61,117 bases of DNA, from positions 1-61,117 of IMG/VR virus record IMGVR_UViG_3300030330_002046. One strand, given 5' to 3'. Within the stretch, counting starts at the first letter, position 1. The number at the start of each line of letters is the position of its first letter. The notes beneath the pieces were generated by a model. That model made no database searches, was not told the DNA's origin, and saw nothing but the letters and a program-made list of their open reading frames with translations. Shown here piece after piece: positions 747 to 57,309 of this stretch. This stretch comes from a virus (lineage: Duplodnaviria; Caudoviricetes). A program made the translations under genes and the position numbers.

Positions 747-757
747 ATGCCTAATAA

Positions 758-789
758 TTTGGTTGTAAACTAAAAATAAACTATATTTG
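758..789 (+). promoter_or_regulatory. Bacteroidota sigma70-type promoter
   Basis: TTTG at 758-761 and TATATTTG (TAnnTTTG) at 782-789, upstream of ATG 818. Confidence 0.75.
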
Positions 790-817
790 TACTATTAATT
801 AACTAAAATAAAACACA

Positions 818-1057: not shown

Positions 1058-1200
1058 TGAATATAACTATAATAGCAGTGCTTTTACCTTTGTGTATCAT
1101 AGCACTATACGTTGCTTACCAAATGGTAAAGTATAATCCAAACAATCCTAACACTACAATACCTTTAGAAGATGAAGAAGATAACAGACTTGATGATTAA
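1057..1200 (+). CDS. Small membrane protein (47 aa; not in ORF track)
   Basis: TAATG coupling; MNITIIAVLLPLCIIALYVAYQMV hydrophobic helix then acidic tail. Confidence 0.55.
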   Translation: MNITIIAVLLPLCIIALYVAYQMVKYNPNNPNTTIPLEDEEDNRLDD

Positions 1201-1516
1201 AGATATTAATGCTGAGAAAGTTGCAAAACATTCTGACAGACATTACATTCAAGATTGTCAAAAGATATTAGACAATTTAGAAAACCTCGATAAGAAAACA
1301 TTTATAAACACCGGTAGAATTATGACTGCCGGACATTTACGAGATAGGTATCCGGATAAAGATTTACAAGAGGGTACTCGTTCCGTATGCAGATACTTGG
1401 GTGGCTTTTGTATAGAGTTTATAAACGAGCGAGATTTTTATTGGGATGGAAATAAAAGCCAAGACATCCGGGAAGTAGAAGATAAACTATTTAATCATAT
1501 TAAAAATTTAATTTAA
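1172..1516 (+). CDS. Hypothetical protein
   Basis: 114-aa ORF in operon orientation. Confidence 0.7.
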   Translation: MKKITDLMIKDINAEKVAKHSDRHYIQDCQKILDNLENLDKKTFINTGRIMTAGHLRDRYPDKDLQEGTRSVCRYLGGFCIEFINERDFYWDGNKSQDIREVEDKLFNHIKNLI

Positions 1517-1521
1517 GAAAA

Positions 1522-1821
1522 ATGAAAAGAGAAGTTTTTGAAAAGTACAGTGTTGAAATCGCTGAGCTATTTAGAATGGACAGAGAAGATATGTTCAAGA
1601 AATCTAAGAAAAGAGAAATTGTAGATGCAAGACATCTGCTATACTACTTATGTGCTACAAGACCAATGAGATTAAAATACATATCAACATTTATGAAAGA
1701 AAATGGATACGATATATCTCATTCATCAATCATTCATGGAATAAAATGTGTTGAAGATAAAGTGCAATCAGATAAAGACTATACTAAAATAATTAAAAAC
1801 CTAAACCTATGCGTACTTTAA
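1522..1821 (+). CDS. DnaA domain IV-like HTH DNA-binding protein
   Basis: KSKKREIVDARHLLYYLC...DISHSSIIHGIKCVE resembles Bac_DnaA_C (R.R.I..AR..AMYL...RDHTTVIH). Confidence 0.7.
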   Translation: MKREVFEKYSVEIAELFRMDREDMFKKSKKREIVDARHLLYYLCATRPMRLKYISTFMKENGYDISHSSIIHGIKCVEDKVQSDKDYTKIIKNLNLCVL

Positions 1822-2216
1822 ACGATGTATTTAATGAAGCTAAAGAGGATACGTTCTGTGCTACATTGGATACCAAATATGTTGAGGCACGCTTAGTCTT
1901 TGGAGTAAAGATAGTAAGAGATAGAGAGACCGGAGTAGTGGAGATATTCAACACTCAAAAAGGAGGGGATTTTTATCAGGAAATAGATATAGATGAGTAC
2001 GATTATTTCTTAGAAAAAAGTTGGAGGTTTGGGGTTTATAGAGTATCTTTGTCTAACTATAGTAGAAAACTTATTAACATTGAAGCATCTATAAAAGATG
2101 TTATTAATGATAAGCAAAACAAAAAACAATTAGACTCCTTACAATCAAGGAGGTTAAACATAATGAATCGTTACACTAAAATTACATCTAAATTAAATTT
2201 ATTACACAATGAGTAA
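1809..2216 (+). CDS. Hypothetical protein
   Basis: 135-aa ORF overlapping both neighbours. Confidence 0.7.
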   Translation: MRTLNDVFNEAKEDTFCATLDTKYVEARLVFGVKIVRDRETGVVEIFNTQKGGDFYQEIDIDEYDYFLEKSWRFGVYRVSLSNYSRKLINIEASIKDVINDKQNKKQLDSLQSRRLNIMNRYTKITSKLNLLHNE

Positions 2217-2796
2217 AAACAATTACACTACGTTAGCGTCCATATCTGTTAAAGATAAAGTTGAACGCAAAGGAAACTTCGATTATTTATCTTGGGCTAA
2301 TGCTTGGCATATGCTTAAGACAATCCATCCAAAAGCTCAAAGAGTTGTATACGAGTCCGTTCAAACGGAATTAAATTACTTCTCAGATGGCAGTACTGCA
2401 TATGTAAAGGTCGGTATTATCATAGATGATGTTGAGCATATTGATTACCTACCGGTAATGGATTACAGAAACAATTCTATACCATTAGAGAAGATTACAT
2501 CAATGGATGTGAATACTGCTATCCAAAGGTCTACTGCTAAGGCTATTGCGATGCACGGGTTAGGTCTATCTCTATGGACGGGTGAGGATGTACCACAGAT
2601 GGTTACAAAGAAGCCTACACCTAAGACAAAAGCCACAACGAAGATTAGTCTTGATATAGGTGATGAGAATTGGGCTAAGGTTATGAAATACATTGGTGCT
2701 AACAAGCAGTTAGGTCTGACTCAGATAGTTAAGAATCTTGAAACCAAATACAAGATGAAGGCTACTGTTAAGAAAGAGATTGAAAAAGCAATGTAA
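2209..2796 (+). CDS. Sak3/DUF1071-like single-strand annealing protein (Rad52 superfamily)
   Basis: YLSWANAW, LPVMDYRN, AKAIAMHGLGL motifs; next to an exonuclease. Confidence 0.8.
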   Translation: MSKNNYTTLASISVKDKVERKGNFDYLSWANAWHMLKTIHPKAQRVVYESVQTELNYFSDGSTAYVKVGIIIDDVEHIDYLPVMDYRNNSIPLEKITSMDVNTAIQRSTAKAIAMHGLGLSLWTGEDVPQMVTKKPTPKTKATTKISLDIGDENWAKVMKYIGANKQLGLTQIVKNLETKYKMKATVKKEIEKAM

Positions 2797-2797
2797 G

Positions 2798-3532
2798 ATG
2801 AAAGACGTAATCGAAAGACTTAAAGATGATGCTGAATATTATGGAGGGATAGGTAAAAACTATCTCTCTAATTCAGATATTGGTGCATTATTAAACAATC
2901 CAAAAGAGTTTGGGGTTACACGTAAAGACAATCAAAACTTTGCTAAAGGTAGATTGTTTCATCAGTTGATACTTGAGCCTGAAAAAGCTAAGGATGTTGT
3001 AACATTAGATGTAGCCTCAAGAAACACAAAGAAGTATAAGGACTTTGTTGCTGACAACGAGTTAGATTTTTGTCTACTTGATAAAGAGGTTGTAGAAATA
3101 AAGTCTTGGGTTGAGGCTATAAATTCTAACATGGATATGTTTGATATGATTTACGATGAGACTAACGAATATGAGGTCCCAAGCGTAAAAGAAATAAAGG
3201 GTATGATGTGGAAAGGTAAAGCAGACATTGTAGCTTCTGATTGCTTGATAGATTTAAAAACTACCGGTGACATAAAGAAGTTTGGTAAGTCAGCTTATCT
3301 TTATAACTACGATAGCCAAGCATATATTTACCAAGAGTTGTTTGGTAAGCCCTTAATATTTATCGCTATAGATAAGACGACAAAGATGCTTGGAATATTC
3401 AGACCGACTGAGGAGTTTATCAGAAGGGGTGAAGGCAAGGTAGAAAAAGCAATAGAGGTTTATAATAAATTCTTTTCTGAAGATGCTGAGCTTACTATTG
3501 ATGACTACTATATTGATATGTACATTGATTAG
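2798..3532 (+). CDS. PD-(D/E)xK exonuclease (RecE/exonuclease VIII, DUF3799-like)
   Basis: LSNSDI, GRLFHQLILEPE, KGKAD...IDLKTT, YDSQAYIY; ATG 2798 preferred over TTG 2780. Confidence 0.8.
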   Translation: MKDVIERLKDDAEYYGGIGKNYLSNSDIGALLNNPKEFGVTRKDNQNFAKGRLFHQLILEPEKAKDVVTLDVASRNTKKYKDFVADNELDFCLLDKEVVEIKSWVEAINSNMDMFDMIYDETNEYEVPSVKEIKGMMWKGKADIVASDCLIDLKTTGDIKKFGKSAYLYNYDSQAYIYQELFGKPLIFIAIDKTTKMLGIFRPTEEFIRRGEGKVEKAIEVYNKFFSEDAELTIDDYYIDMYID

Positions 3533-3621
3533 TCCGTTTGAACGGACACACACAGATGGCTTTTGTAGATGTTCCCTCAGTCTACATTAGCCTTTATAAA
3601 GAGGGATAAATATTTTTTATT

Positions 3622-3885
3622 ATGGCAAAAGAGAAAATCTTTGCAGACGGTTTCTCGTTCTCAACGAGAGAAAACCAACCTGACTTTGTAGTCGGTAGAG
3701 TATCAGTTAAAGTAGAGGATGCTATTCCATTCCTTAAAAAACACGCATCTGAAAAAGGATGGGTGAACCTAAACGTCTTGGTAGGTAGAAGTGGAAATCC
3801 TTACGTTGAGCTTGATACTTTTAAACCAAAGTCAAACACAACAGAAAAGGTTACGGAAACGGTAGAAGAAGATTTACCATTCTAA
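3622..3885 (+). CDS. Putative single-stranded DNA-binding protein
   Basis: Short beta-rich protein with acidic tail EEDLPF, following the SSAP and exonuclease genes. Confidence 0.6.
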   Translation: MAKEKIFADGFSFSTRENQPDFVVGRVSVKVEDAIPFLKKHASEKGWVNLNVLVGRSGNPYVELDTFKPKSNTTEKVTETVEEDLPF

Positions 3886-3891
3886 AACTAC

Positions 3892-3922
3892 AAAGGGGAG
3901 CGTAAAAGCTCCTCTTTTTTTT
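3892..3922 (+). terminator. Intrinsic terminator
   Basis: aaaggggagc-gtaaaa-gctcctcttt followed by a T run. Confidence 0.8.
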
Positions 3923-4080
3923 ATGTTGAAATGACGAAAAGTATAGCTCTATACTCTCTATATATATTTTACTTGTATATATTTTTTTTATTCTCTATAT
4001 TTGAATAATAAAATTAACATTTTCATCAATACTACTGAGTATGAGGATGTTAAGAAAAATTAAATAACATTAAATCAACA
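3923..4080. repeat. AT-rich element homologous to 54441-54600; candidate replication origin
   Basis: Same ordered blocks in both copies: atgtt..aatgacg, (ta)n, ataaaat.aacatt, tactga, aacattaaa.caaca. Confidence 0.55.
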
Positions 4081-4082
4081 CA

Positions 4083-6470
4083 ATGGCAACAAAAAACGTC
4101 ACGATATTTAAGAATATCAAGGAAACCTCGACTCCATTCCATAGAGAAGTTGGTGTGGTGCTAGAGAGAATCAAGGAAGGTTCTTCCAAAGAATTAGTAA
4201 AGAACATACGGCAAGAGAAGGATAAATCTTCTCGTAATGAACTGAAGAAAATGCTACCGGCTATATGTTTTTCAGGTGTATTTTCTAAGAGAAACGATAA
4301 CTCTATCAATGAGCATAGTGGAATAATATGCTTGGACTTTGATGGTTATCCTAATAAAAAAGAACTATTAGCAGATAAAGAAAGATTAACTAAGGACAAG
4401 TTTGTATACTCAGTTTTTATTAGTCCATCAGGTAATGGTTTAAAAGCATTGGTTAAGATACCACAAGATATTGATAACCATGTAAACTATTTTAACTCTC
4501 TCGATAATCATTTCAATTCAGAATACTTTGATAAGACTTGTAAGAATATAAGTAGAGTGTGTTATGAATCTTACGACCCTTTAATTTATATCAATGAGAA
4601 CTCATCTATATGGGACACAATAGAGGACATTGAATACAGAGAGGTATCTGTTTACAGAGACGCTCCAACCATACCAATAACAGATGAGAATAAGATTGTA
4701 GACATTCTTGTTACTTGGTGGACAAAGAAATACCCAATGTCTGAAGGTCAGCGTAATCAAAATACTTTTATTTTAGCTATGGCTTTTAATGATTATGGGA
4801 TAAATAAAAGTTTAGCGTCATATGTTTTAAATAATTATGCTACAAGAGATTTTCCGGTAAGTGAGATTACAAGAACTATTGATAGTGCTTATGCTAATAC
4901 TCAGAACTTTGGAACGAAGTATTATGAAGATGATGAGAGAGTAAATAATATCAAAGCAAAGTTAAGGAGAGGTGTAACAAAAAAAGAGATTCGTCATCAA
5001 TTAGCAGAGTCCAATTTAGATGGCGATACAATAGAGGCTGTTCTAACAAAAGTATCAGAGGAGAACTCTCTTAAACAATTTTGGACTAAGAATGATAAAG
5101 GTGCTATTAAAATCGTTCACATATTATTTAAGCATTTCTTAGAGGATAATGGATTCTATAAATACTGTCCGGAGGGTAGTAAGAATTACGTGTTTGTAAA
5201 GGTAACTAATAACCTTATAGACCATACATCAGAGAAAGAGATTAAGGACTTTATATTGGGTCATCTAATTGAACTCGATGACTCTACTATCTATAATTAC
5301 TTTGCAGATAATACAAGGTTATTTAGAGAGGAATTTTTAACTCTGTTAGCAACAATAGATATATACTTTATTGAGGACACAAAGGATAGTGCTTATCTAT
5401 ACTACAGAAACTGTGCAGTACACATAACAAAGGACACGATAAAAACTATTGATTACTTAGACTTGGGTGGTTATGTTTGGAAAGACCACGTGATAGATAG
5501 GAACTTTGATATATGCGATGTTGTAGATTGTGATTACAAGACATTCATAAACAACATTTGTGGTGGTGAAGATAAGAGAGTAAAATCAATGGAAAGCACA
5601 ATTGGTTTTATGCTTCACGCTCACAAAAATTTATCATACTGCCCGGCAATAATACTAAACGATGAGGTTATATCAGATAATCCTGAGGGTGGAACGGGTA
5701 AAGGTTTGTTTATGAATGCTCTATCTAAAATGAAAAAGGTTGTGACAATTGACGGAAAGTCTTTTACATTTGAGCGTTCGTTTGCGTACCAACTTGTATC
5801 AGCAGATACTCAGATACTTGTGTTCGATGACGTTAAAAAGAATTTTGATTTTGAAAGATTGTTTAGCGTTGTAACAGAGGGTCTTACTCTTGAGAAGAAG
5901 AATAAGGATGCTATCAAGATACCATTCTCTAAGTCACCTAAGATTGCAATTACAACTAACTATGCCATAAAGGGTGCAGGTAATTCATTTGCACGTAGAA
6001 AGTGGGAGTTAGAACTGCATCAGCATTACAACAAAAACTTTACTCCATTGGATGAGTTTGGTAAATTAATGTTCGGTGATTGGAGTGATAGAGATTGGTG
6101 TAGCTTTGACAACTATATGATTGGGTGTCTTCAAAAATATTTAGCAGAAGGACTTAAGCAAAGTCAATTTGTTAACTTAAAGATTAGACAACTATCAGCA
6201 GAGACTTGTCACGACTTCATCGAATGGTGTGGGCTAATAGACGGCTCATCGTCAAATGAAAAATTAATATCAAATTCAAGATTAAATAGTCAACAACTTT
6301 ACTATGACTTCATTGAAGAGTACCCGGACTATGGACCAAAAGCAAAGATGACTATATCAAGAACAAGATTCTATAAGTGGTTAAATTCATATGCTTTATA
6401 TAAGACCGGTGTTCAGCCTGAGGTTGGTAGAGATATAAACGGAAAATACATAACAATCAAAACACAATAA
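4083..6470 (+). CDS. Primase-helicase (VirE_N/BT4734-like N-terminus, PriCT, P-loop)
   Basis: LPAICFSG, GIICLDFD, FISPSGNGLK, EGQRN, Walker A GGTGKG, Walker B ILVFDD. Confidence 0.85.
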   Translation: MATKNVTIFKNIKETSTPFHREVGVVLERIKEGSSKELVKNIRQEKDKSSRNELKKMLPAICFSGVFSKRNDNSINEHSGIICLDFDGYPNKKELLADKERLTKDKFVYSVFISPSGNGLKALVKIPQDIDNHVNYFNSLDNHFNSEYFDKTCKNISRVCYESYDPLIYINENSSIWDTIEDIEYREVSVYRDAPTIPITDENKIVDILVTWWTKKYPMSEGQRNQNTFILAMAFNDYGINKSLASYVLNNYATRDFPVSEITRTIDSAYANTQNFGTKYYEDDERVNNIKAKLRRGVTKKEIRHQLAESNLDGDTIEAVLTKVSEENSLKQFWTKNDKGAIKIVHILFKHFLEDNGFYKYCPEGSKNYVFVKVTNNLIDHTSEKEIKDFILGHLIELDDSTIYNYFADNTRLFREEFLTLLATIDIYFIEDTKDSAYLYYRNCAVHITKDTIKTIDYLDLGGYVWKDHVIDRNFDICDVVDCDYKTFINNICGGEDKRVKSMESTIGFMLHAHKNLSYCPAIILNDEVISDNPEGGTGKGLFMNALSKMKKVVTIDGKSFTFERSFAYQLVSADTQILVFDDVKKNFDFERLFSVVTEGLTLEKKNKDAIKIPFSKSPKIAITTNYAIKGAGNSFARRKWELELHQHYNKNFTPLDEFGKLMFGDWSDRDWCSFDNYMIGCLQKYLAEGLKQSQFVNLKIRQLSAETCHDFIEWCGLIDGSSSNEKLISNSRLNSQQLYYDFIEEYPDYGPKAKMTISRTRFYKWLNSYALYKTGVQPEVGRDINGKYITIKTQ

Positions 6471-6471
6471 A

Positions 6472-7716
6472 ATGGCAAACAAAATAGAGTGGAGAGATTA
6501 TCAATCAGATATAATTCACAAGGCTACAACTATAATCAACAAGAGTAAGTTTGTTTACCTTGCTATGGAGGTGAGAACAGGTAAGACTCTTACGAGTTTA
6601 GGTATAGCAGAAAAGTTAGGGGTAGAGAATGTTCTATTCCTAACTAAAAAGAAAGCTATACAATCTATTAGTGATGACTATGACTTACTTTGCCCGGTAA
6701 GATTCTCTTTGTTTACAATCAACTATGAGTCAATACACAAAGCACCTAACTTAAAGTGGGACTTAATCATATGTGATGAGGCTCACGGAATGGGTGCTTT
6801 CCCTAAGCCAAGTAAAAGAGCGAAGGATGTTAGAGACTTAGTTAGGAAATGTAAACCAAAAGTTATACTGCTGTCAGGTACGCCTACGCCTGAATCTTAT
6901 AGTCAAATGTATCATCAAGTATTCTCTATACCAACTAATCCATTTGCTCAGTTTAAAAACTTTTACAGATTCTGTGATAGATATGTAAAGGTAAAAGAAC
7001 GTAAGATAAATGGTCTAATGATAAAAGATTATAGTAATGGTAAGCAATCTATATTAGATGCTATGAAGCCATACACTATAAGTCTTACTCAAAAGGAGGC
7101 AGGCTTTGTTACTGAAACTAAAGAGAATGTTTTAGAGGTTGAGCTAGAACCAAACACTTTAGATATAGCTAAGACTCTTAAAAAAGATTTAGTGGTTCAA
7201 GGTAATACAGAGGTTATACTTGCTGATACTCCCGTAAAGCTAATGATGAAACTACATCAGATATACTCCGGAACAGTAAAGTTTGAGAGTGGTAATTCTA
7301 TGGTGCTTGATTACTCAAAAGCTAAGTTTATAAAAGAACATTTTTATGGCAAGAAAATTGGAATATTTTATAAGTTTAAAGAAGAACTTAACGCTTTGAA
7401 AAAAGTTTTTGGTGATGATTTAGTTACAGAACTTAGTCCGTTTGAACGGACTAATAAAAACATAGCTCTTCAGATTGTGTCAGGTCGTGAAGGTATATCT
7501 CTTAAACAAGCTGACTGCTTAGTATATTATAATATAGATTTTAGTGCTACAAGTTATTGGCAATCAAAGGATAGGATGACTACTAAGTCAAGACTTAAGA
7601 ATAAAGTTTATTGGATATTCTCTAAAGGTGGAATTGAAAAAGACATATACAAGGCTGTCACAAAGAAGAAAGACTATACATTAAAACACTTCAAAAGAGA
7701 TTTACTATCTTTATAA
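6472..7716 (+). CDS. Superfamily 2 (SNF2-like) helicase
   Basis: RTGKT, DEAH, LSGTP, GREGISL, QSKDR motifs. Confidence 0.9.
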   Translation: MANKIEWRDYQSDIIHKATTIINKSKFVYLAMEVRTGKTLTSLGIAEKLGVENVLFLTKKKAIQSISDDYDLLCPVRFSLFTINYESIHKAPNLKWDLIICDEAHGMGAFPKPSKRAKDVRDLVRKCKPKVILLSGTPTPESYSQMYHQVFSIPTNPFAQFKNFYRFCDRYVKVKERKINGLMIKDYSNGKQSILDAMKPYTISLTQKEAGFVTETKENVLEVELEPNTLDIAKTLKKDLVVQGNTEVILADTPVKLMMKLHQIYSGTVKFESGNSMVLDYSKAKFIKEHFYGKKIGIFYKFKEELNALKKVFGDDLVTELSPFERTNKNIALQIVSGREGISLKQADCLVYYNIDFSATSYWQSKDRMTTKSRLKNKVYWIFSKGGIEKDIYKAVTKKKDYTLKHFKRDLLSL

Positions 7717-7735
7717 TAATATAAAAACAAGATTT

Positions 7736-7894
7736 ATGAAATGTACTGAATGTTCAAAAGATTTAATATGGGGAGGAGACCACACGTACGAAGATTACGG
7801 ATTAGAGGGTAATGGAATTGTAACTAATTGCTCGTGTCCTAATGAAGACTGTGATGTGGAACAAGTATTAATTTACAAAACCATTAATGACTGA
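7736..7894 (+). CDS. Small Cys-rich (zinc-finger-like) protein, 52 aa; not in ORF track
   Basis: MKCTECSKDLIWGGDH...NCSCPNEDC; fills the gap between helicase and VRR-NUC. Confidence 0.65.
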   Translation: MKCTECSKDLIWGGDHTYEDYGLEGNGIVTNCSCPNEDCDVEQVLIYKTIND

Positions 7895-8129
7895 GCAACA
7901 GATACAAGCCAAAAGAATAAAGCAGTTAGAGGCTGATGGTTACTACGTTATAAAGCTTGTTAAGACAAACAAGAATGGTATACCTGACTTGGTAGCCTTC
8001 AAGCCTGATGCTGAAATTCTATTTAGTGAAATAAAAAAACCTAATGGAAAATTATCTAAGCTACAAGAGTATAGACTAAAAGAACTAAAAAGTTATGGAT
8101 TCAAAACAGAAGTCTACAAAGGAGATTGA
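7887..8129 (+). CDS. VRR-NUC domain nuclease
   Basis: EQQIQ...GIPDL...FSEIKKPNGKLSKLQ. Confidence 0.85.
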   Translation: MTEQQIQAKRIKQLEADGYYVIKLVKTNKNGIPDLVAFKPDAEILFSEIKKPNGKLSKLQEYRLKELKSYGFKTEVYKGD

Positions 8130-8457
8130 AACTCTAAAGTTTGACATGGAATTTTTAGAAGAGATTTCTGAATATGATGACGATGTTCAAGAGGTTGTTT
8201 TAAAAACTTTACTTGAAGAAGAAGAAGACCTACCTGAGAAAAATGGATTTACTCAAAAGGTTTACGGTGTAATACAAGGAGAAGAGCCAATGTATTACGA
8301 GGTAGAATACTTCAAGCAAGAAGAAGAGAAAGCAATATACTTAGAATTTAAAGTAGTAGATGTTGATATTTTTTTAGATGGTGTTATAAATAAAACTACA
8401 TTCAAATTAAATAAATGTAATGGAAACAAAAAAAGAAAAACAAGAAAGACTGATTAA
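8095..8457 (+). CDS. Acidic hypothetical protein
   Basis: 120-aa ORF with a strongly Glu/Asp-rich core. Confidence 0.65.
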   Translation: MDSKQKSTKEIETLKFDMEFLEEISEYDDDVQEVVLKTLLEEEEDLPEKNGFTQKVYGVIQGEEPMYYEVEYFKQEEEKAIYLEFKVVDVDIFLDGVINKTTFKLNKCNGNKKRKTRKTD

Positions 8458-8935
8458 GATTATAAATAGTGTATTTGATTTAGATATAAAAAGAAATAAA
8501 AAGTCTGAGATGTATGTGTTAGCTAGAGCATCATACTGCAAGATTTTAAGAGATTTAAATTATCAATACATGGATATAGGAAATAGAATCAATAAACATC
8601 ACGCTAGTATTATCCACTCTTACAGAAACTTTTCACACTACAAACAATTCTTTCCTTCATTCATAAATTTACATAATAAAGTGTTAGCTGAGTTTGGAAG
8701 TAGAGAGGCAAAAGAGTATATGGAATCATTAGAAAAGCTTAAAGAAGAGAATGAAGCTTTGAAATCTCGTATAAAAGAATTACATTCGCACAACGCACGT
8801 CTTTCGTATCAGCTTGAAAACAAGCATTCAAAGAATAATACTCTTCATAATATGATAGACGAAAGGGTAAGACCTAACACGTTAAAAGAAGTTGAAATTA
8901 AATTAAATAGATTATTAAATGGAGTAGGCTCATAA
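8420..8935 (+). CDS. DnaA domain IV-like HTH protein with coiled coil
   Basis: YVLARASYCKILR...YMDIGNRINKHHASIIHS, then heptad repeats. Confidence 0.6.
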   Translation: METKKEKQERLIKIINSVFDLDIKRNKKSEMYVLARASYCKILRDLNYQYMDIGNRINKHHASIIHSYRNFSHYKQFFPSFINLHNKVLAEFGSREAKEYMESLEKLKEENEALKSRIKELHSHNARLSYQLENKHSKNNTLHNMIDERVRPNTLKEVEIKLNRLLNGVGS

Positions 8936-8950
8936 GACTCACCGATAAAA

Positions 8951-9142
8951 ATGTCCTGTAAAAAACCAAATGATTTTCAAAGATTGAATTACATCAATAA
9001 AATGATGGACGGTTTACACGACTCTCTAAACGACATATATGAATCTTTAGTTGACAAGGAATATTCTACAACAAGAAAGAATATATCAACATTGAAATCT
9101 AAGTTAGAAGATGTGTCTAAAACAATAGAAGATGAAGTCTGA
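8951..9142 (+). CDS. Hypothetical protein
   Basis: 63-aa helical ORF in operon orientation. Confidence 0.6.
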   Translation: MSCKKPNDFQRLNYINKMMDGLHDSLNDIYESLVDKEYSTTRKNISTLKSKLEDVSKTIEDEV

Positions 9143-9524
9143 AACTCAGGTTTGTACCGGGTGCAAAAAACCAAAGCCATTAAAAGATTATTGGACTGCG
9201 GGAATTGTAAAAGGTAAAAGGTATAAAAGAAAAAGGTGTAAGGTTTGCTACAATAAAACAAAATATAACTACAAATTTAGAATGCGTAAGTGGTTTCAGG
9301 AATACAAAGAATCACTTAAATGTAGTAGATGTGGTTACTCAAAAGAAAATAATAAAGGCTTCAGCTCTCATGCTCTGCAGTTTCATCACGTAAAAGATAA
9401 AAGTTTTGAAATATCAAATGCTATATCAAGGGGTTACGCCATGAAGAGAATAATAAATGAAATAAAAAAGTGTGTCGTACTATGTGCGAGATGTCACGCT
9501 GAACATCACGATACTCGAATATGA
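9132..9524 (+). CDS. HNH endonuclease with N-terminal zinc finger
   Basis: CTGC...CKVC; CSRCG...ALQFHH...KCVVLCARCHAEHH. Confidence 0.85.
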   Translation: MKSETQVCTGCKKPKPLKDYWTAGIVKGKRYKRKRCKVCYNKTKYNYKFRMRKWFQEYKESLKCSRCGYSKENNKGFSSHALQFHHVKDKSFEISNAISRGYAMKRIINEIKKCVVLCARCHAEHHDTRI

Positions 9525-9931
9525 GGTTTGAATTACAAGAAGATTTAAAAAGAGAGACTCAAGCTATAGAAAAGTTTGTGAATATGTTTGGAGGTAGTTT
9601 TAAAAAACTTGGTCCAAATGATATTGATTATCGTGTATTTGATTCTAAAGGAGAGCTTATAGCGTATGTTGAAGTAAAGGGTAGATTAAGACCAATAAAA
9701 GAAGCGTACCCTCTTCCTGTGGCAGCAAGAAAAGTTGTGAAGCTGTGTGATAAAAGATTAAATCCGGTGATGATATGGGCTTGTGAAGATGGAATAATAT
9801 ATGGTAAAGTTCCTGAGATGGAAGGCTCTGTAAGATGGGGTGGTAGAAAGCCACGGCTACATTCAGTTAATGATGAAGAGCTTATGATATACTATGAAAA
9901 ACAAAAAGCTTTTAAGTATGTACGATATTGA
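9521..9931 (+). CDS. PD-(D/E)xK-family nuclease-like protein
   Basis: DIDY...AYVEVKGR. Confidence 0.7.
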   Translation: MRFELQEDLKRETQAIEKFVNMFGGSFKKLGPNDIDYRVFDSKGELIAYVEVKGRLRPIKEAYPLPVAARKVVKLCDKRLNPVMIWACEDGIIYGKVPEMEGSVRWGGRKPRLHSVNDEELMIYYEKQKAFKYVRY

Positions 9932-10013
9932 AGATGAGCCTAACATAAAAGAATTTATTATTGTCTTTATTATAAACTTTATTATAATCTATGGATTGTA
10001 TAAAATATTTTAG

Positions 10014-10021
10014 TATATTTG
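10014..10021 (+). promoter_or_regulatory. TAnnTTTG promoter element driving a candidate sRNA
   Basis: TATATTTG with no downstream ORF before the terminator at 10067-10096. Confidence 0.6.
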
Positions 10022-10026
10022 AACCA

Positions 10027-10096
10027 CAATCTCTCTATGATTGTTATAAGTTTTTTGTTTGCTATGAGGAGTCCGTTTAAACGGACTCCTTTTTTT
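10027..10096 (+). ncRNA. Candidate ~70-nt trans-antisense sRNA against the leader of the gene at 60441
   Basis: 10046-10062 is the exact reverse complement of 60426-60442; ends in palindrome hairpin plus T run. Confidence 0.6.
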
Positions 10097-10105
10097 GACT
10101 AATAA

Positions 10106-10321
10106 AATGGGCGTGAGTGAGAGCAGTTAAACTCTTATAATCATAGCTACTGCAGGTAAGACTTCCGTACAAAACCTATGAGCCTATTATAAAATAACGA
10201 GAGTGTGCTGCGTGAGTGCTACATATCTAAATCCTAGCTTTAATTAATATGGGCTAGGTTGTTCTTGTACTCAGGGGAGTTAAATAAACTTGGTCGTCTA
10301 TGCGGCTCCCTTGATACTCTT
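10106..10321 (+). ncRNA. Candidate structured RNA (two multi-stem domains)
   Basis: Seven nested helices; G-U wobbles favour the + strand; gcgtgagtg occurs in both domains. Confidence 0.4.
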
Positions 10322-13300
10322 TATTCAATATCCATTAAGTCTTGTAATTCTTTTTCAACAGCTTTTAGTTCTTTTGCTCCCTCAGAATTATATAGTACAT
10401 CATACAGCTCAGGTAAATCTTCTTTCATCTGAGCCTTAGTCATAGACCTTTGCTTATTAGTCGGTTTCTTTTTACCTATAGCGTAGTCAGAGTAGTTAAA
10501 AAGTCTGAGTATCAATTCACCCGTATCCATATCTTCCTCACTAATTTTTACAGCGTTCTCTTTCATTCTTAACAACTGAGGTGCAGGTATTCTTAATAAT
10601 GTAAGGAGCTCAGAATAAAGTTGTTTTTGATAAGCAGCTTTTAACTCAGGGTCTTTTACTTGTTTTGCTCTTTGAGCTTTCTTTAGTATAGAACTAGCTA
10701 ATTCTACTATACCAACTTGCTTACCTACATCCGCAGCCCAAGGTTTATCCGTAGCATAATCAGCTATACCTTCGATAACTTCTCCAAGTATAAACAATGC
10801 GTTAAGGTTACCTAATAACACAGCTCTTAACATATCTACTTCATCCTCATCATCAAAGTCTGTTAAGAGTCCCGGAAAGCCTGAGCTTACCCATTGGAAG
10901 AAAGCAGGCATTACCATGTGGAACATAAAAAATTCTCTTAAATTATCATTAATACTTCCTTTACCTGCGTTCTTATCTTTAGCTTTAAACTTTCTATATA
11001 GGTTTCTAATAGACATTATCTCTCGTCTAAGGTATTGCTTTGGAGTTGTTTTAAAAGCATTCAAACCTCTAACTAAAGCATCACCCGTCTGAAAGAAATC
11101 TTTATCTTGAATGTCGGCAGACTGCTGAGTTGTTTTAGTAGCTTTCTCAAACTTAATTATAGCATAATCAATAGCCTCTTGCTCCGTAGCTTTAGGGTTA
11201 TTCTTTTTAAACTGTGCCTTATGGTAAGAATATAAAGGCATACCCCCAAGGTATATCGCACCTCTATCACCTGTTCTCACAAACCACATCATAGCGTTTA
11301 TAAAGTAATCTTTAGTTTCAGTAGGAACAAACTGTTTCATAGCTGAGTCAGTATAACTCTCTATTACCTTCATAATATTTTCAGCTCCTCTATCCTTCAT
11401 GTATACAGAGTTGTCTTTAATTTCATTAAAGACTTTACGCATTTCTTTTTTATTTTTTACAGCATACTCAAGGTAGTTTTTAAAACCAATATCAGAAGCA
11501 TATGTAAGAGTTGATGTCATTTGTTTTAAGAATATAACAGGAGATAATGCAACTCTTGTAGTTATAAACACATTATTCATAGCGTTTATAAATTTTGTCG
11601 CCTGAGGATTTTTACTTCCTTGATTAGCTATCTGCTTTATTCTGTCTTGTATAAAGGTGTAAAGTCGTTTCCCGTGGTTTGCCTCTATAGAATTTTTTAT
11701 GATAGGGTTTGTAAATATTTTATTTATATCTCTAATATTTTCAGCGTAAGCGGCAAAGAACTCCATGTCATTTAAGTACGTCATCAAAGCATCAGTACCA
11801 TCCATCGCCATAATTTCATTTGTGTTATTTACTCTAGCTTTAGTAGATGAACCACCTACACTTGTTTGAACAACAGAGTTTTCTCCTAATAAATCTAAAG
11901 CCTCAGGAGTAATCCCTTCTCTATATATTCTTCCTGCATAAAACTGATTCCAAGGCATATCAGTTCGGTATATCTTTTTATATACCTCATTATAATAATC
12001 ATATAAGCTTGGGAAGTATTCATTAACTTGCCAATCAGCAAACTCTTTTACTTTAGGGTCTAGCTTAGATTCTATTTCTTTTGCAACGTCCATAAAGTCT
12101 TCACCCCACATCCTTTTAAAAGTAGGTCTGTTAGCAGGGTCTTTAAATTGATTGTATAAATAGTATAGTTGGTTTTGACTGTAGGTTATGCCAAGAGACT
12201 CTATTGGTGTACTAAACATTGCATTAGAGCGAACAATTTTTTTCCAACCCTTACCATAAATTTCTTGAAACTTTTTTGTTAACACATCATTATACATAAG
12301 TCTTCTTTCTTTAAAGACTCTACTTGAAGCATCAACTTTATCTGTAACCAACTCTTGCAATTTACCCCCGAACAACTCTCCCGGCATTTTAGATATTGCA
12401 TCGATTAATCCTTGTAGGGATTCAGCAGAGTAAAAGAAATCTCTTGTACCTTCTAAAATATTATCTGCAAAAGCTTTTGCTTTTCCTTGTACAGCTTTTT
12501 TATTTTGTTCAGACGCTAATTTTCTTTTAGACTTTCTAAGCAACTCCTCTTTATTATCCTTAGACATATCTATCTTCTCACCTGTTATCTCTGAGTAAGC
12601 TAATTCAAACTGTCTATCGTACTCAGCTTTTTGAGCTTCTATAATTCTAGCTAATTCACTCTTACCTTTTTCAACTAAAGCCTGTAAGTTTTCAAGTGCA
12701 ATATCTAAAGCATCTACCTTTGATGGGTCAATGTTTTCCATCAACAAAGAGTTGTTAATATTAATCAAAGATGTTTTAGCCATAATCTCTGATATATTTT
12801 CCTCAGGATTTTCAGAAAGTTTTTCTATTTCTTTTCTTTGAACCTGCTCAGATAACTCAATTTGTTCAGCCGTAGCATCTTCAGTTAGCCTGTTCTTTAT
12901 TATAAACTGAATTAATTTAGCCGTCTCACTATCTACCTTTACACCCTTAATTCTACCTGAATAAAGCTCTTCAGTTTTAAGATTTAATATGTCTGTTATC
13001 TTGCCGTCTAAAATACTTACATTCTTGGATGTAGCGAACTCAAATACTTCATTTATTAAATTATTTATTGAAGCTCTATCAGCTCTTGTTACTTTATTAA
13101 TAAGGTCAATAACCTCAGACTTAGTATACTGAGTTGAAGGTATTGTTTTTCTTATGAATGATTTTAATATGTTTTGAGTTTCTTTTAAGTTACGTGCACC
13201 TCTAGCTCTTTCTCTTATATCTCTTTTAGCTGTTTCAACTTTAGTACGCATAGCTTGAGTTTGTCTAAGAGGATTCATCTTTTGAAACTCAGTAATCATC

Positions 13301-16300
13301 TCAGCTTGAATAGTTGATAATCCTAATCTGCGTTTTGTCTCACCCTTAAGAGTATATGTTTCAGCCTCAGCTTTATACTCAGGCTGTTTCTCTAAAAACT
13401 CAATTGTCTTATCTGTTATCTGAGCTTCAGATAGCTTGTCTTTTTTAGTGGACTTGTTCTTAGATACTAATCCATCTCTAAACTTATTAACTCTTTTGAA
13501 TAATTTCAATCCTGCTTTAGAGCCGCCTTTTATGTTTGCAAAAGACTTAGGTAAATCACCAAGACCAACGGAAAGCATTTCTTTAACATCTTTTGCTTTC
13601 ATACCTTTCTTTTGAGTAAGGTAATCAGCTATCCTTTCATCAGTAAAGTTTGCGTCTCTAGCCTCCTTTATAAATACATCAGCGTCAAATTCTTTTTTAA
13701 CCTTTTTAACTTTAGGAGCCTCAGTAATTATTTCATTTATAAGTTTGCTGTTAACACCTTTCTCTTTTAGTATTTCTCTTATACCAACCTCTGAGTATCC
13801 TGCGTTTCTTAAGTTTGTAACAACTTTTTCTACAACTTGCTTATTAGATTTACTTGCTTTTTTGAAGGCAACATCAGCCTTCATAGCTGCACGTTCTTTA
13901 GGTGTAAGCTTTATTGGTTTACCACCAAGTATATCTCTGAGTGCTGTACCTAAGAATTGGTCAAGAGTTAAATCTTGAATTTCCTTGTTTGTTAAGTCCT
14001 TGAATTGTTTGAACTGTGACTTAATGTAATCCCATAGTCCCATCAACCAATCAATCCATTTAGATTTTGTTGCTTGGTTTGTTATTGACTCACCTTTATT
14101 ACCTATGAGAATAGCCATAGCTTCTTCAACAGCTTTTACTTCATCACCATTAAATATCTCTAACTGCTCTTTATATGTGTCAGTTTCTTTAACTAATTCA
14201 GCACCTCTGTTATAAATCTTTTTACCTTTCGCACTTTGCTTTATATACTTAGTCCACACGTGACCCATCTCGTGAATGGCTGTGTTGTATAAAGCTGAAC
14301 TTGAATTGTGAACATCAGGGTTTATAAATATCTCTCCGTTAGCAGTAACACCATATATAACATCACCGTCTTTTAAATATTTCTTCACACCGTCACGCTC
14401 CATCACACTATTAAAAGTCTCTGCATCAACAACCATGTTGGTCTCAGGGAATGAGCGTTGTAAGAAGTCTATAAATCTACTGTCCGGGTTTACACCTATA
14501 GGTGTGCCAAGAAATTCTTTATTAACTAATCCTGCTTGAACAGGTATAGTTTGAACTAATCTTGCTGCATCACTTCTTGACCCTCTCTCACCGGTAATCT
14601 CTTCTGCAATACCTAAAGCCACATTATTGTATGCTGAAGGAATTAAGTCAACTATTGATATAGGTTGTTTTAATATACCAAGTACTTGTCCTTTTGGTCC
14701 AAAAGGGTAGTTAGGATGGTTTGTTCTAATTGTCTGAGGGTTTTTAACGTCAATAGATGTAACCATAAACGCACTTCTTTGAGGTACGTTTGCGAGCTCA
14801 GGCTCTGTTATTACATCTGCAATCTTTTTAATGTTAAACTTATTTATATCTTGCTGAGAAGGGTTGTCACCATACAATGCTTTCAATACAGGCTTTTTAC
14901 TTTTACCCGGCTGCTTCTTTAATACATTAAAATTACCTGTTGTTATAAGGTTTGTTATCTGAGCTACCGATGTTATACCTTTTAGTGACTGTAAGCTTTC
15001 AGTAGATAATATATCCTCAATAGATTTAGCTTTTGATTGCTTAATCATATCTTGAACATCCTGTATTTCTCCAATAAATTTAGAGTAGTTTTTAATAGTA
15101 AGACCTGATGCTTTTTTACCACGCATCGTAAGACCTGTATCAACTACTTTTTTATACTTATCCTTAAGATTTGATAGCTCTTCATTTAAAGCTTTTAGAG
15201 CGGCTATTTTATTTTTAGCAGGGAATGATGCCAAGTTGTCCTTAATAACTCTTATTAAAGCTTCATTACTCTTCATACTATCATTACCCATCTTAACAAT
15301 AACCATAGGAATATGACCGTCAGGTAAAACACCTTCAGCCCAAAGCTTGTCGAATTTAGGTTTATTGTTTTCGTATATCTTTATAGCTGAGTTTTTTTGG
15401 TTGTTAACTTTATCTTGAGTAACACTAGCCCAAGCTATATTCTCGTGACCTTTGACAGAGCTAAATCCTAAACCACCTTTTAGATTTATTATTTCATTTC
15501 CTGTAAATGGATTTGTTACCGAGTAGTTTTGGTTTACATCAGTAACATTTGGGTTGTAGTTACCCGTTGTTAATTGGTCTGATATGTTCAACATTACCGG
15601 AACATTATCAAGTGTTTTTATATCTATCTCCTTGAAGTTACCACCGGTTCTTTGATTCAAAGCCTCAATATTTATTTGAGAAGGCGTAGCTTCAGTCTCC
15701 TTAATCTCACTTACATTTATAAAGTTGTCAGCTCTTTCATTTAATGTTTCTAATATCTGAGCTTCCTTAGCATCTGTTTCTGTATTTTGAGATTCAGTAA
15801 GAGTAGTAAGAGGTTTTCTTCTAAACTCAGGAACTGATTTTTTAGCTTGTTTAATATCTGACTTCATCTCAGATTTAGCAACCCTTATATCATCCTTGTA
15901 TGTGCCAATAATATCTTTTTGTTCTTGCTTAAAATCTTCAAGCTCAGCTTTCAACTCTTCTATAGACTCAAGCTTATCATCTTTTGATAGGCTCTTATCC
16001 TTTCTTACATCAGCAATTTTAGCTTTTATTTCAGCTATACCTTCTTTGGTATTACTTTCCTCTACAGTAATTTCTTCCTGCAGTTCTTCAATCTTACCAT
16101 TATAAAACTCTTCAATTTTTTCTATATTAGATTGAACTGATTCAGGAGCTTTTTCCGTTGTAGTTATTTCATCAAGCTCTGATAAATCTATATTCTCATC
16201 TGCTTTAATTGCATCTACCTCTGTTTTTACTTCAGGTGATAACTCTTCTACATCATCTGTTGTTATTTGCTCATCAATAGAAGCTAAGTCAGTCGTTGGT

Positions 16301-18198
16301 TGTTTAGGAGTTGGGTCGTTATTAATAGTAAAATTTACGGTGTTATTAACAGGGTAGTTGCCTTCACCATCATTAGTTTTTTTTATTTGATTATCTCTTT
16401 CTTTGCTAAATTCACTTATATATTTACTAACCTCTATTGGACCCTCAACAGTTACACTTGTTAGTAATAACCCGTCTTTTGAAAACGTATTAATTTTATA
16501 TGTACCATTAGGCTGAGCCTCAGCTTTTATGTCAAAAACTTTATTGAAAATTTCTTGTCTAGGTAAATTACTTTTTAGACCTGAAATTTCTTGCATAACT
16601 TTTTCAATTAAAGTTATAGGTGTATTTGCTCTATCTATAACACCCTCTAAATATTTTCGAGCTGCTTTAGGATTAAGCTCACCGCTTTCAATCTTTTTAT
16701 TTATATCAGTAAGTAAAGACCAAGCTTGCTCTTTTTCAGCTTCATTAAACTCTGTAAATTGTTTATTAAAAACAGACTTACCTTGAGCTATCTTAGACGC
16801 TAAACCAACTGCTCTAAAACCTATAACATATTTTAAAGCATCAGCCATACCATCTTTAAAAGACTCTGCGGTAAGTTCACCCTTAGGATTTTTAAGAGTT
16901 GGAGTAGTTGCGTTAATATAACCAAATGTACCTACCTCACCACCAAAACCAAATGACTCACCTACTGCACTTAATATCCTAGAATCATTCAAACCTCTTG
17001 ACCCTAAAACACCTGTAACACCTTTTTGTGAAACACTCTTAATTCCATCTGTTTTTAAGGCTGTACCTAGTCTAGGTATTTGCCTAGCAACTTGACCTAT
17101 TAAACCTAACCCTACACCAAGACCATAACCTTGTGAAAACGCTTCAGGAGATTGAGTGAAGTCTACATTTTCTATACCCCCTAATTCTTCTACTTGGGTT
17201 TGAAAATTTTTTGCAGTTTCAAAAAAACCGAACTTAGAACCTGCTTTATCTAATTGATTAACAACTTTAGGTAGCTGTTCTTGAACTATTCTTGATGCAA
17301 CTTCAGGTTTCATTCCTCTCTTAACTAAAGCATCAACGGTGTATTTACCTGCTCCTAGGATTGGTAGTTTTGGTAAAACCTTTGATGCACCTTTAACTAT
17401 AGCACCTCCAACTCCAACCTCAGGCATAACAAAAAAGTCTAAGACTGTGCTTAAAACACCTGTAACAAATTCATTAGTATCTCCATCCTTATAATCTGTT
17501 ATATTAAACATTGGCTCTGTAGTATACTTGTCTGCTGTAGGAATTATGGGTTCATCTTTACCCGTATACACAGGACCTGAAACAGGACCGGGAGTAGCAC
17601 CACTACTAGCTATCATTCTTCCAATAAGACCTGTAAAAGAATCATCATAAGATTTCTCTAAAGTTCTTGGTATTGTTAATAAATCCTCTTCATCTGCTTC
17701 TTGAGAATAAAGCTGAGGAGTTTTTTTCCAATCCTCTAAAGAAGGAACAGAAACATCACCTGCTTCTATTGCTTTACCATAAATGCTTTGATATAATTGC
17801 TCGTCTAACTCTGTTGGCGTTAATTCTCTTTCAACAGGTTCGTCCGTTTGAACGGACTTAGATATAACCTCTAAAGCTTTTTCTTTTGTTATACCACTTT
17901 CATCAGGACTTATTGTCTCGGAAACATCCGAAGAGATAACTTCTTCCTGCTCTGTCGGTGTAACAGATTCCATAACATCCTCTTGAGAAATAGAAACGGA
18001 CTCGTCTTTTTTTTTTACACCAACAAGTGTTGAAAATTCTTCTATAGACTTTTTGTATCCTTGTTCTTTAAATAAAGCATACGAGTCATTTAAAGCGTCA
18101 GGGTTTGTGTTTATAAGATTTACATATTCATCAAAAGATTTAGTATAACCTTTCTGTTTAAATAATTCGTAAGAATCCTTTAATGCCTGCTCGTTCAT
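10321..18198 (-). CDS. Giant (2625 aa) putative internal virion/ejection protein with zincin-like domain
   Basis: Last gene of the structural block; HEMGH...EEAMA metallopeptidase-like motif; coiled coils. Confidence 0.65.
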   Translation of the reverse strand: MNEQALKDSYELFKQKGYTKSFDEYVNLINTNPDALNDSYALFKEQGYKKSIEEFSTLVGVKKKDESVSISQEDVMESVTPTEQEEVISSDVSETISPDESGITKEKALEVISKSVQTDEPVERELTPTELDEQLYQSIYGKAIEAGDVSVPSLEDWKKTPQLYSQEADEEDLLTIPRTLEKSYDDSFTGLIGRMIASSGATPGPVSGPVYTGKDEPIIPTADKYTTEPMFNITDYKDGDTNEFVTGVLSTVLDFFVMPEVGVGGAIVKGASKVLPKLPILGAGKYTVDALVKRGMKPEVASRIVQEQLPKVVNQLDKAGSKFGFFETAKNFQTQVEELGGIENVDFTQSPEAFSQGYGLGVGLGLIGQVARQIPRLGTALKTDGIKSVSQKGVTGVLGSRGLNDSRILSAVGESFGFGGEVGTFGYINATTPTLKNPKGELTAESFKDGMADALKYVIGFRAVGLASKIAQGKSVFNKQFTEFNEAEKEQAWSLLTDINKKIESGELNPKAARKYLEGVIDRANTPITLIEKVMQEISGLKSNLPRQEIFNKVFDIKAEAQPNGTYKINTFSKDGLLLTSVTVEGPIEVSKYISEFSKERDNQIKKTNDGEGNYPVNNTVNFTINNDPTPKQPTTDLASIDEQITTDDVEELSPEVKTEVDAIKADENIDLSELDEITTTEKAPESVQSNIEKIEEFYNGKIEELQEEITVEESNTKEGIAEIKAKIADVRKDKSLSKDDKLESIEELKAELEDFKQEQKDIIGTYKDDIRVAKSEMKSDIKQAKKSVPEFRRKPLTTLTESQNTETDAKEAQILETLNERADNFINVSEIKETEATPSQINIEALNQRTGGNFKEIDIKTLDNVPVMLNISDQLTTGNYNPNVTDVNQNYSVTNPFTGNEIINLKGGLGFSSVKGHENIAWASVTQDKVNNQKNSAIKIYENNKPKFDKLWAEGVLPDGHIPMVIVKMGNDSMKSNEALIRVIKDNLASFPAKNKIAALKALNEELSNLKDKYKKVVDTGLTMRGKKASGLTIKNYSKFIGEIQDVQDMIKQSKAKSIEDILSTESLQSLKGITSVAQITNLITTGNFNVLKKQPGKSKKPVLKALYGDNPSQQDINKFNIKKIADVITEPELANVPQRSAFMVTSIDVKNPQTIRTNHPNYPFGPKGQVLGILKQPISIVDLIPSAYNNVALGIAEEITGERGSRSDAARLVQTIPVQAGLVNKEFLGTPIGVNPDSRFIDFLQRSFPETNMVVDAETFNSVMERDGVKKYLKDGDVIYGVTANGEIFINPDVHNSSSALYNTAIHEMGHVWTKYIKQSAKGKKIYNRGAELVKETDTYKEQLEIFNGDEVKAVEEAMAILIGNKGESITNQATKSKWIDWLMGLWDYIKSQFKQFKDLTNKEIQDLTLDQFLGTALRDILGGKPIKLTPKERAAMKADVAFKKASKSNKQVVEKVVTNLRNAGYSEVGIREILKEKGVNSKLINEIITEAPKVKKVKKEFDADVFIKEARDANFTDERIADYLTQKKGMKAKDVKEMLSVGLGDLPKSFANIKGGSKAGLKLFKRVNKFRDGLVSKNKSTKKDKLSEAQITDKTIEFLEKQPEYKAEAETYTLKGETKRRLGLSTIQAEMITEFQKMNPLRQTQAMRTKVETAKRDIRERARGARNLKETQNILKSFIRKTIPSTQYTKSEVIDLINKVTRADRASINNLINEVFEFATSKNVSILDGKITDILNLKTEELYSGRIKGVKVDSETAKLIQFIIKNRLTEDATAEQIELSEQVQRKEIEKLSENPEENISEIMAKTSLININNSLLMENIDPSKVDALDIALENLQALVEKGKSELARIIEAQKAEYDRQFELAYSEITGEKIDMSKDNKEELLRKSKRKLASEQNKKAVQGKAKAFADNILEGTRDFFYSAESLQGLIDAISKMPGELFGGKLQELVTDKVDASSRVFKERRLMYNDVLTKKFQEIYGKGWKKIVRSNAMFSTPIESLGITYSQNQLYYLYNQFKDPANRPTFKRMWGEDFMDVAKEIESKLDPKVKEFADWQVNEYFPSLYDYYNEVYKKIYRTDMPWNQFYAGRIYREGITPEALDLLGENSVVQTSVGGSSTKARVNNTNEIMAMDGTDALMTYLNDMEFFAAYAENIRDINKIFTNPIIKNSIEANHGKRLYTFIQDRIKQIANQGSKNPQATKFINAMNNVFITTRVALSPVIFLKQMTSTLTYASDIGFKNYLEYAVKNKKEMRKVFNEIKDNSVYMKDRGAENIMKVIESYTDSAMKQFVPTETKDYFINAMMWFVRTGDRGAIYLGGMPLYSYHKAQFKKNNPKATEQEAIDYAIIKFEKATKTTQQSADIQDKDFFQTGDALVRGLNAFKTTPKQYLRREIMSIRNLYRKFKAKDKNAGKGSINDNLREFFMFHMVMPAFFQWVSSGFPGLLTDFDDEDEVDMLRAVLLGNLNALFILGEVIEGIADYATDKPWAADVGKQVGIVELASSILKKAQRAKQVKDPELKAAYQKQLYSELLTLLRIPAPQLLRMKENAVKISEEDMDTGELILRLFNYSDYAIGKKKPTNKQRSMTKAQMKEDLPELYDVLYNSEGAKELKAVEKELQDLMDIE

Positions 18199-18207
18199 AT
18201 CTTAATT

Positions 18208-54388: not shown

Positions 54389-54410
54389 TGTATATTAAAT
54401 TTGATTTACG

Positions 54411-54418: not shown

Positions 54419-54440
54419 GTATATTTTATTTTATTCCAAA

Positions 54441-57305: not shown

Positions 57306-57309
57306 TCTC

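Follow-up and report, generated by a model that had tools for sequence, protein, structure and literature searches.

Two gene arms converging on a terminator

The window analyzed here, by which we mean the whole stretch of DNA at its full length of 61,117 nt, contains the circularly assembled 61,025-nt genome of a phage (bases 1–92 are the same as bases 61026–61117). The phage is uncultured and known from metagenomes only, and the sequencing runs containing most of the window are labelled as marine metagenomes. A Bacteroidota-type host is suggested by the A-rich stretches, not Shine-Dalgarno sequences, that precede the gene starts and by well-placed intergenic boxes matching TAnnTTTG. The genes are arranged in two arms:

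About 55381 across the ends to 10013, + strand: plus arm, with a primase-like protein, an SNF2-type helicase, a PDDEXK nuclease and the GATase-GGCT protein
54388 down to 10321, − strand: minus arm, with terminase, portal, virion proteins, a GroEL-like chaperonin and a 2625-aa ORF
9894–10013, + strand: last gene of the plus arm, a 39-aa hydrophobic small protein whose stop codon abuts the octamer TATATTTG

The plus arm is the replication/early gene arm. Because its genes end at 10013 and a minus-strand ORF occupies 10321–18198, the segment at 10014–10096 (locus A) is the exact convergence point of the arms. IMG/VR contains many related phages of ~60 kb; in 30 of the 80 returned loci we read the region 3′ of the PDDEXK gene, where homologues of the small ORF with the sequence ...KEFI...LY... 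precede the terminator.

Several other features of the minus arm and its borders were recorded. The 2625-aa ORF (10321–18198, − strand) has no PHROG match and contains one copy, at 17842, of the palindrome family described below. The phage-encoded GroEL-like chaperonin (52799–54388, − strand) matches phrog_5725 with E = 9e-135. Diverged tandem repeats of 120 nt and ~75–78 nt lie at 41128–41490 and 44587–45098, inside minus-strand structural genes. Between the divergent arms, a G+C-rich non-coding stretch (~54400–55300) with one family palindrome (55095) could serve as a control region or form a structured RNA; an Rfam E-value scan of this stretch from 54500 onward returned no match.

Locus A had been proposed to encode a trans-acting antisense RNA that covers the start codon of the GATase-GGCT gene. 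It contains the following elements:

10014–10021, + strand: octamer TATATTTG, resembling a −7 box of the Bacteroidota type
10026–10044, + strand: hairpin 1 of the RNA fold, with a 6-bp stem and a 7-nt loop
10046–10062, + strand: T-rich 17-nt stretch, the exact reverse complement of 60426–60442, predicted to be unpaired
10066–10096, + strand: intrinsic terminator of the plus arm, with an 11-pair stem (10066–10091, 6 G-C), a 4-nt loop and a run of seven T (10090–10096)

Locus A is first of all the terminator of a + strand operon. The terminator recognized in the original prediction has the features of an intrinsic (Rho-independent) one: its hairpin, with a stem built on the family palindrome, has an energy of −17.8 kcal/mol, it ranks among the three strongest + strand terminator-like sites in 1–20000, and the orthologous position is a terminator in relatives. 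When folded as a 72-nt RNA, the locus gives hairpin 10026–10044, 21 unpaired nucleotides (10045–10065) and the terminator hairpin, with a minimum free energy (MFE) of −22.7 kcal/mol (z = −5.47; 0 of 200 shuffles folded as well). Positions 10045–10065 are unpaired between the two hairpins in both the MFE and the centroid folds, and the seed would thus be exposed as had been supposed. The statement that no ORF intervenes holds for long frames, as no + strand ORF of at least 30 aa starts within 10014–10258, but not for short ones, since an ATG frame of 21 codons occupies 10037–10102. A peptide from locus A was considered and rejected: the ATG of this frame is lost in G004 and G005, the two closest relatives. 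Searching the whole window against Rfam at gathering scores yielded no matches, and a search with E up to 10 gave, at locus A, nothing beyond noise caused by the terminator (for example MicC, 20.6 bits with a threshold of 90). Locus A belongs to no described RNA family.

The octamer is present on the + strand where it had been described. Counts of the loose motif TAnnTTTG (48 and 46 copies, with ~42 and ~41 expected) are near expectation, and the loose motif is therefore uninformative. The exact octamer has seven + strand copies in the window, four of which (782, 3996, 55311 and 60367) are intergenic, lie ahead of + strand genes and have TTG or TTTG 19–20 nt upstream; two of these four sit just after terminators. 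At 10014 the box is an exact copy, but TTG is found only 15 nt upstream, and no −33 element stands at its normal distance. G001, G002, G004 and G005 all retain the octamer in the corresponding position, the first two despite diverged flanks. A weak promoter at 10014 is plausible but unproven. A promoter of its own is also unnecessary for the RNA, because transcripts of the operon, which end at the locus A terminator, contain the antisense stretch within their 3′ UTR. Contigs of a metatranscriptome run (X19) and of a possible RNA run (X20) were placed on genes several hundred bases upstream of locus A, and none of them reached the locus itself.

An inverted match to the start of the GATase-GGCT gene

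The site matched by locus A, locus B (60404–60442), is the 5′ untranslated region of a + strand gene with its own promoter-like box at 60367. The Pfam families GATase_4 and GGACT match the two halves of the encoded GATase-GGCT protein. The elements of this region are:

60367–60374, + strand: −7 box of the GATase-GGCT promoter, preceded by TTTG at a distance of 20 nt and retained in each of the 10 relatives shown
60398–60425, + strand: leader hairpin, with an outer GAGG/CCTC stem, a TC bulge and then the family palindrome
60426–60443, + strand: A-rich translation initiation region and ATG, the proposed target site
60483–60492, + strand: 10-nt block complementary to hairpin 1, evaluated in the 10-mer test

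We confirmed that 10046–10062 is the exact reverse complement of 60426–60442, that is, of the last 15 nt of the GATase leader and the A and T of the ATG at 60441, and that the two loci are separated by 10.6 kb on the 61,025-nt circle. The alignment comprises 17 identical positions, a 3-nt gap (TAT, 10063–10065), 11 identical positions (GAGGAGTCCGT), loops differing at two positions and an identical ACGGACT. The claimed continuation of the duplex past the gap, through GAGGAGTCCGT and the hairpin, is therefore borne out, and we counted ~37–38 possible pairs where ~39 bp had been quoted. Its specificity is another matter: the hairpin is a member of a palindrome family, GTCCGT-N4-ACGGAC, with 15 sites in the window, and both loci (10071 and 60405) match the family core. 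Accordingly, ~22 of the quoted ~39 pairs come from the family element. The sites, with the roles assigned to them, are:

719, 10071, 31235: terminator stem
56276, 60405: mRNA leader hairpin
56030, 57702, 58884, 59364: stem III of four type I hammerhead ribozymes
3532, 7436, 17842, 55095, 57282, 58482: the other sites

Pairing of the palindrome bases between the two RNAs requires that they leave stable intramolecular hairpins of −17.8 and −10.9 kcal/mol. That more than half of the quoted duplex lies in these hairpins of a 15-copy family argues against an antisense function.

By itself the 17-mer is at chance level in an AT-rich genome. The window holds exactly two zero-mismatch copies of the word, and allowing up to 3 mismatches gives four matches with 1.13 expected, a number reached in 1 of 100 shuffles. 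Distant inverted exact 17-mers numbered 0.84 per genome on average in order-3 Markov genomes, and the real genome has two once the palindrome family is masked. The word was found in 46 stretches of IMG/VR. Pure chance in AT-rich, low-complexity sequence thus has some arguments in its favor: a distant inverted 17-mer turned up in 51 of the 100 simulated genomes, and 45 of the 46 IMG/VR stretches are unrelated to the phage, the related one being the target site of G005. Against chance stand the surroundings of the word. The 17-mer adjoins the family palindrome at both loci in matching orientation, and the outer stem is common to both. Furthermore, a second block, 10027–10036 in hairpin 1, is the reverse complement of 60483–60492 inside the GATase coding region and collinear with the first; a match of its length was reached by 63 of 20,000 shuffles and 73 of 24,244 genomic windows (p ~0.003). 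A sliding duplex scan missed the main site, owing to its settings (40-nt windows, step 8, long interior loops allowed), and served only to draw attention to this 10-mer, which was tested separately. Three collinear blocks of 10, 17 and 11+7 nt share one common orientation. Because the 17-mer abuts the palindrome at both loci and the collinear 10-mer matches, the composite is non-random; we take it, on the sequence, to be true homology beyond chance, and consider pure coincidence scarcely credible.

Homology could also have another source. Locus A might not be a copy of the GATase leader but what is left of the leader module (a palindrome with an A-rich leader) from a minus-strand gene since lost. 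A palindrome followed by an A/T-rich leader and an ATG does recur on both arms, for example at 31235 (− strand), 56276 and 58482. However, no minus-strand ATG or ORF follows locus A, an intact minus-strand gene starting there is absent from all relatives, and the 17-nt identity together with the collinear 10-mer points specifically to the GATase 5′ end. We regard a vestige of this kind as very improbable.

The explanation that we consider best, and in which we place about as much belief as doubt, is that locus A is a terminator carrying a young inverted-duplication insert, with any regulatory effect incidental or absent. The terminator closes the + strand (replication/early) arm where the convergent 2625-aa gene meets it. 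In the clade formed by the window and two near-identical IMG/VR genomes, an insertion of ~50 nt appears to separate the terminator stem from the last stop codon. The insert is most simply read as a copy, in inverted orientation and with an internal deletion, of the GATase-GGCT transcript's first ~90 nt. It would span an arm of the leader hairpin, the A-rich leader with the start codon, and part of codons 15–17, and would be joined exactly at the palindrome common to both loci. A template or strand switch between two copies of the palindrome may have created the junction; this is the simplest route because the palindrome reads the same on both strands and has 15 copies in the genome. Any transcript ending at the terminator, whether an operon 3′ UTR or a ~70-nt RNA from the TATATTTG box, would expose the antisense stretch and could pair with the GATase start.

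Predicted pairing and its divergence among relatives

In the competing reading, the pairing is under selection. Locus A would produce a trans antisense RNA, whether as a primary transcript of ~70 nt started at the TATATTTG box or as the replication operon's 3′ UTR. This RNA would have been born through inverted duplication of its target, and its 17-nt stretch would bind the initiation region of GATase-GGCT together with the start codon and block ribosome loading. We consider such a regulator possible but doubtful. In its favor, the seed is unpaired between two hairpins in the predicted fold, and the octamer is identical to four well-placed + strand promoters and conserved in relatives, although the −33 element missing at its usual spacing weakens the latter point. 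The GATase-GGCT start region was also the best predicted target among all 124 ORF starts of the window, at −26.0 kcal/mol with the outer stem included in the query (next best −18.7; mean −9.9, sd 3.0). This ranking in the window is circular, because the site was found by its complementarity. The GATase start ranked second of 126 in G004 (−21.0, with −21.1 for the best) and first of 114 in G005 (−20.0, with −18.7 for the next). The 17-nt perfect duplex alone contributes −19.1 kcal/mol, and the second collinear 10-nt block could permit pairing at two sites. Provided that an RNA ending at 10096 accumulates, it could credibly base-pair, in physical terms, with the initiation region, which is A-rich and single-stranded.

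Some properties of the insert are awkward for the view that it is a by-product of duplication. A 5′ hairpin, 21 predicted unpaired nucleotides and a terminator give it the look of a working base-pairing RNA, the homology stops exactly at the start codon, and the full heteroduplex is favored by ~28 kcal/mol over the two separate folds.

To evaluate conservation, we compared eight whole relative contigs; the window itself is denoted G000. The closest genomes, G004 and G005, are near-identical to the window (the flanking protein is 99% identical) and have the same insert at locus A, but their seed region differs at its 5′ end. The partner of the leader is present in three of the eight GATase-bearing genomes, with longest exact matches of 17 nt (G000), 14 nt (G004) and 12 nt (G005). 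In the five other GATase-bearing genomes there is no partner; words of 11–14 nt occur at unrelated places or as direct repeats. The covariation expected of a regulator and its target was thus not found: complementarity is confined to three of eight genomes, and shrinks from 17 to 14 to 12 nt within the clade. Divergence between the window and its two closest relatives was distributed as follows:

44-nt body of locus A, G000 versus G004 or G005: 7/44 columns
17-mer, G000 versus G004 or G005: 3/17 columns (target 0–1/18)
Upstream gene, G000 versus G004 and G005: 7/373 and 6/373 columns
32 nt with the octamer, G000 versus G004 or G005: 0/32 columns
Terminator, G000 versus G004 or G005: 1/31 columns
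Target 5′ UTR, G000 versus G004 and G005: 1/63 and 0/63 columns

The body of locus A is the fastest-changing stretch in its surroundings, changing ~8 times faster than the neighboring gene, while the target is unchanged. We see no sign of selection keeping the pairing. These differences (7/44 in the body, 3/17 in the 17-mer) reveal no visible constraint, as expected of a by-product, and together with the absence of pairing from five of the eight GATase-bearing genomes they are the main objection to an antisense function. On the other side, the residual perfect matches of 12–14 nt in G004 and G005 would still be enough for a seed. In two of the three genomes, moreover, the T run at locus A is as long as the leader's A run, at 6/6 in the window and 7/7 in G004, and the change in G004 is possibly compensatory; G005, at 7/6, is a counter-example, and the runs are homopolymers. 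The trans-sRNA interpretation is therefore supported in part, by the anatomy and the top predicted target, and fails on conservation of the pairing: locus A has the structure of a base-pairing sRNA but not the conservation of one.

More distant relatives differ in this segment. In L017–L020 (including G003), the terminator directly follows the small ORF and there is no insert, which agrees with a terminator that acquired its insert in the window's clade alone. In L013–L016 (including G001 and G002; ~80–83% protein identity), TATATTTG and the terminator are kept around a body of 50–75 nt that is unrelated to that of the window. Retention of the octamer in G001 and G002 despite unrelated bodies resembles a small transcription unit rather than junk, and speaks against a mere by-product. 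It raises the possibility of a real small RNA, a conserved promoter-plus-terminator module with another job, such as pairing with host mRNA or acting as a decoy, for which the GATase match would be incidental. In support, G002 keeps the module and yet has no GATase gene at all. Against it, relatives of the G003 type lack the module, and neither the G001 nor the G002 body has an outstanding predicted target among the ORF starts of its own genome (best scores −27.6, mean −15.2, sd 3.8 for G001; −24.0, mean −14.8, sd 3.6 for G002). A 13-nt match of the G002 body was rejected as a target, as it lies inside a coding region. We judge another job for the RNA improbable.

The leader hairpin at locus B is conserved more widely than its putative partner. 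The comparison comprised 10 valid rows, with L139 left out, and the hairpin structure is kept in all of them, the inner stem being swapped to each genome's own palindrome. L003–L010 and L140, whose proteins are 68–78% identical to that of the window, conserve the leader at 60385–60443 (TTAATCAGAGG, palindrome, CCTC, A-rich stretch, ATG) along with its promoter. The outer stem carries compensatory changes in these relatives, and the hairpin itself is therefore probably functional. Since it is kept in relatives without a partner RNA, its role would be independent of any such partner, in agreement with a terminator whose insert is a duplication by-product.

Known regulatory RNAs and the genome-specific palindrome

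Small RNAs derived from 3′ UTRs carry their seed just upstream of the operon's own terminator and require no separate promoter. The seed of locus A occupies the same position, just 5′ of a shared operon terminator. The c4 RNA is cut from, or forms the end of, an operon transcript, and an RNA from locus A may be alike. In c4, as at locus A, the complementary sequences are repeats within one genome.

The phage RNAs P1/P7 c4, P22 sar and lambda OOP are likewise described as repressing a gene of their own phage by base pairing (PMC12197685). According to the same source, OOP overlaps its target in cis, whereas locus A lies 10.6 kb from its target, and the three RNAs act on immunity or lysogeny targets of temperate phages, whereas the putative target of locus A is a metabolic or modification enzyme gene. 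We found no homology between locus A and c4, sar or OOP.

Closer in mechanism is GibS of Bacteroides, which is reported to repress with a long single-stranded seed at start-codon regions, and thus lends some support to an antisense function (PMC7366714). As described there, GibS pairs at start codons without Hfq, with targets that have no Shine-Dalgarno sequence, and GibS and other trans sRNAs of Bacteroides thetaiotaomicron share with locus A an AT-rich sequence, a long single-stranded seed and an intrinsic terminator (PMC7366714). In contrast, GibS is presented as conserved across species and experimentally validated (PMC7366714), whereas the predicted pairing of locus A is confined to three near-identical phage genomes. 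GibS and locus A are related neither in sequence nor in Rfam.

Our search of the phage sRNA literature, which was not exhaustive, returned no trans antisense regulator for such phages. If it acts in this way, locus A would, to our knowledge, be the first such case in this phage group.

The full form of the antisense account is that a lytic marine phage made a trans antisense RNA by inverted copying of the 5′ end of its own gene into the 3′ end of its replication operon, by way of the shared palindrome, such that expression of the replication operon would shut off GATase-GGCT translation. We hold this to be unlikely. If an antisense function is true, the locus would be a phage regulatory RNA arising from duplication of its target, the birth of an sRNA caught in the act, and start-codon occlusion by long seeds, known from Bacteroides, would be extended to phages of the same host group. 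If the insert is a by-product, as we think more likely, it serves as a warning for AT-rich phage genomes with repeated palindromes, in which a complementarity of "~39 bp" can turn out to be largely a shared hairpin family with a word of chance length added.

The palindrome and the hammerhead array may outrank locus A in interest. The 16-nt palindrome is genome-specific, and all copies change at once. The window has 15 palindromes of type GTCCGT-N4-ACGGAC and none of the two other types found in relatives, and the window's own type has 12 sites in G004 and 13 in G005. G001 (the same as L141–L143) has 15 of type GTCTGT-N4-ACAGAC and none of the others, and G006, G009 and G010 have 10, 16 and 13 of type GTGTCT-N4-AGACAC. 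Many sites are orthologous, even within the helicase gene, where the protein changes along with the palindrome (VTELSPFERTNKNIA versus VTELSLFQQTNKHIA). This switching in all copies points to a co-evolving, sequence-specific factor that would recognize the palindrome in DNA or the hairpin in RNA. The 17-bp repeat of Cluster O mycobacteriophages is likewise described as a short palindrome in many copies per phage genome, mostly intergenic (PMC4351075). In the window, by contrast, the palindrome has further roles as terminator stem, leader hairpin and hammerhead stem III, and it switches sequence as a whole between related genomes.

The hammerheads are located between small + strand genes and have the core CTGATGAG ... 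CGAAAC ... GTC. Four are of type I and one is type III-like:

About 55995–56065: hammerhead
About 57305–57362: hammerhead
About 57667–57730: hammerhead
About 58849–58913: hammerhead
About 59329–59393: hammerhead

A decayed copy at ~58445–58512 has lost the core. All score below the Rfam gathering thresholds, the best being 33.5 bits against 34 for Hammerhead_1 and 30.1 against 56.3 for the RAGATH-1 hammerhead. After cleavage, the upstream mRNA would carry a family hairpin at its 3′ end. Hammerhead arrays flanking phage genes have already been reported (PMC3088659).

Searches for further relatives of the junction added little. The GenBank phage collection contained no relative for 9000–12000, and only one weak match, in the GGCT gene. 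A 20-mer taken just 3′ of the terminator had no match in the bacterial and archaeal genomes scanned; a metagenome scan with it yielded a single identical copy (L162) and four matches in unrelated contexts, hence no further variant of locus A. Just beyond the terminator lies an element of ~85 nt (10108–10192), differing in 1–3 of 85 columns from G004 and G005. It has no Rfam match, no tRNA or tmRNA, no bacterial genome match and no strong fold (z = −1.7 and −1.1). The element is nearly identical in phage contigs with unrelated flanks; in L159–L161, L163, L177, L178 and L180 it lies between a gene ending in an SSB-like ...DDGLPF tail and another gene.
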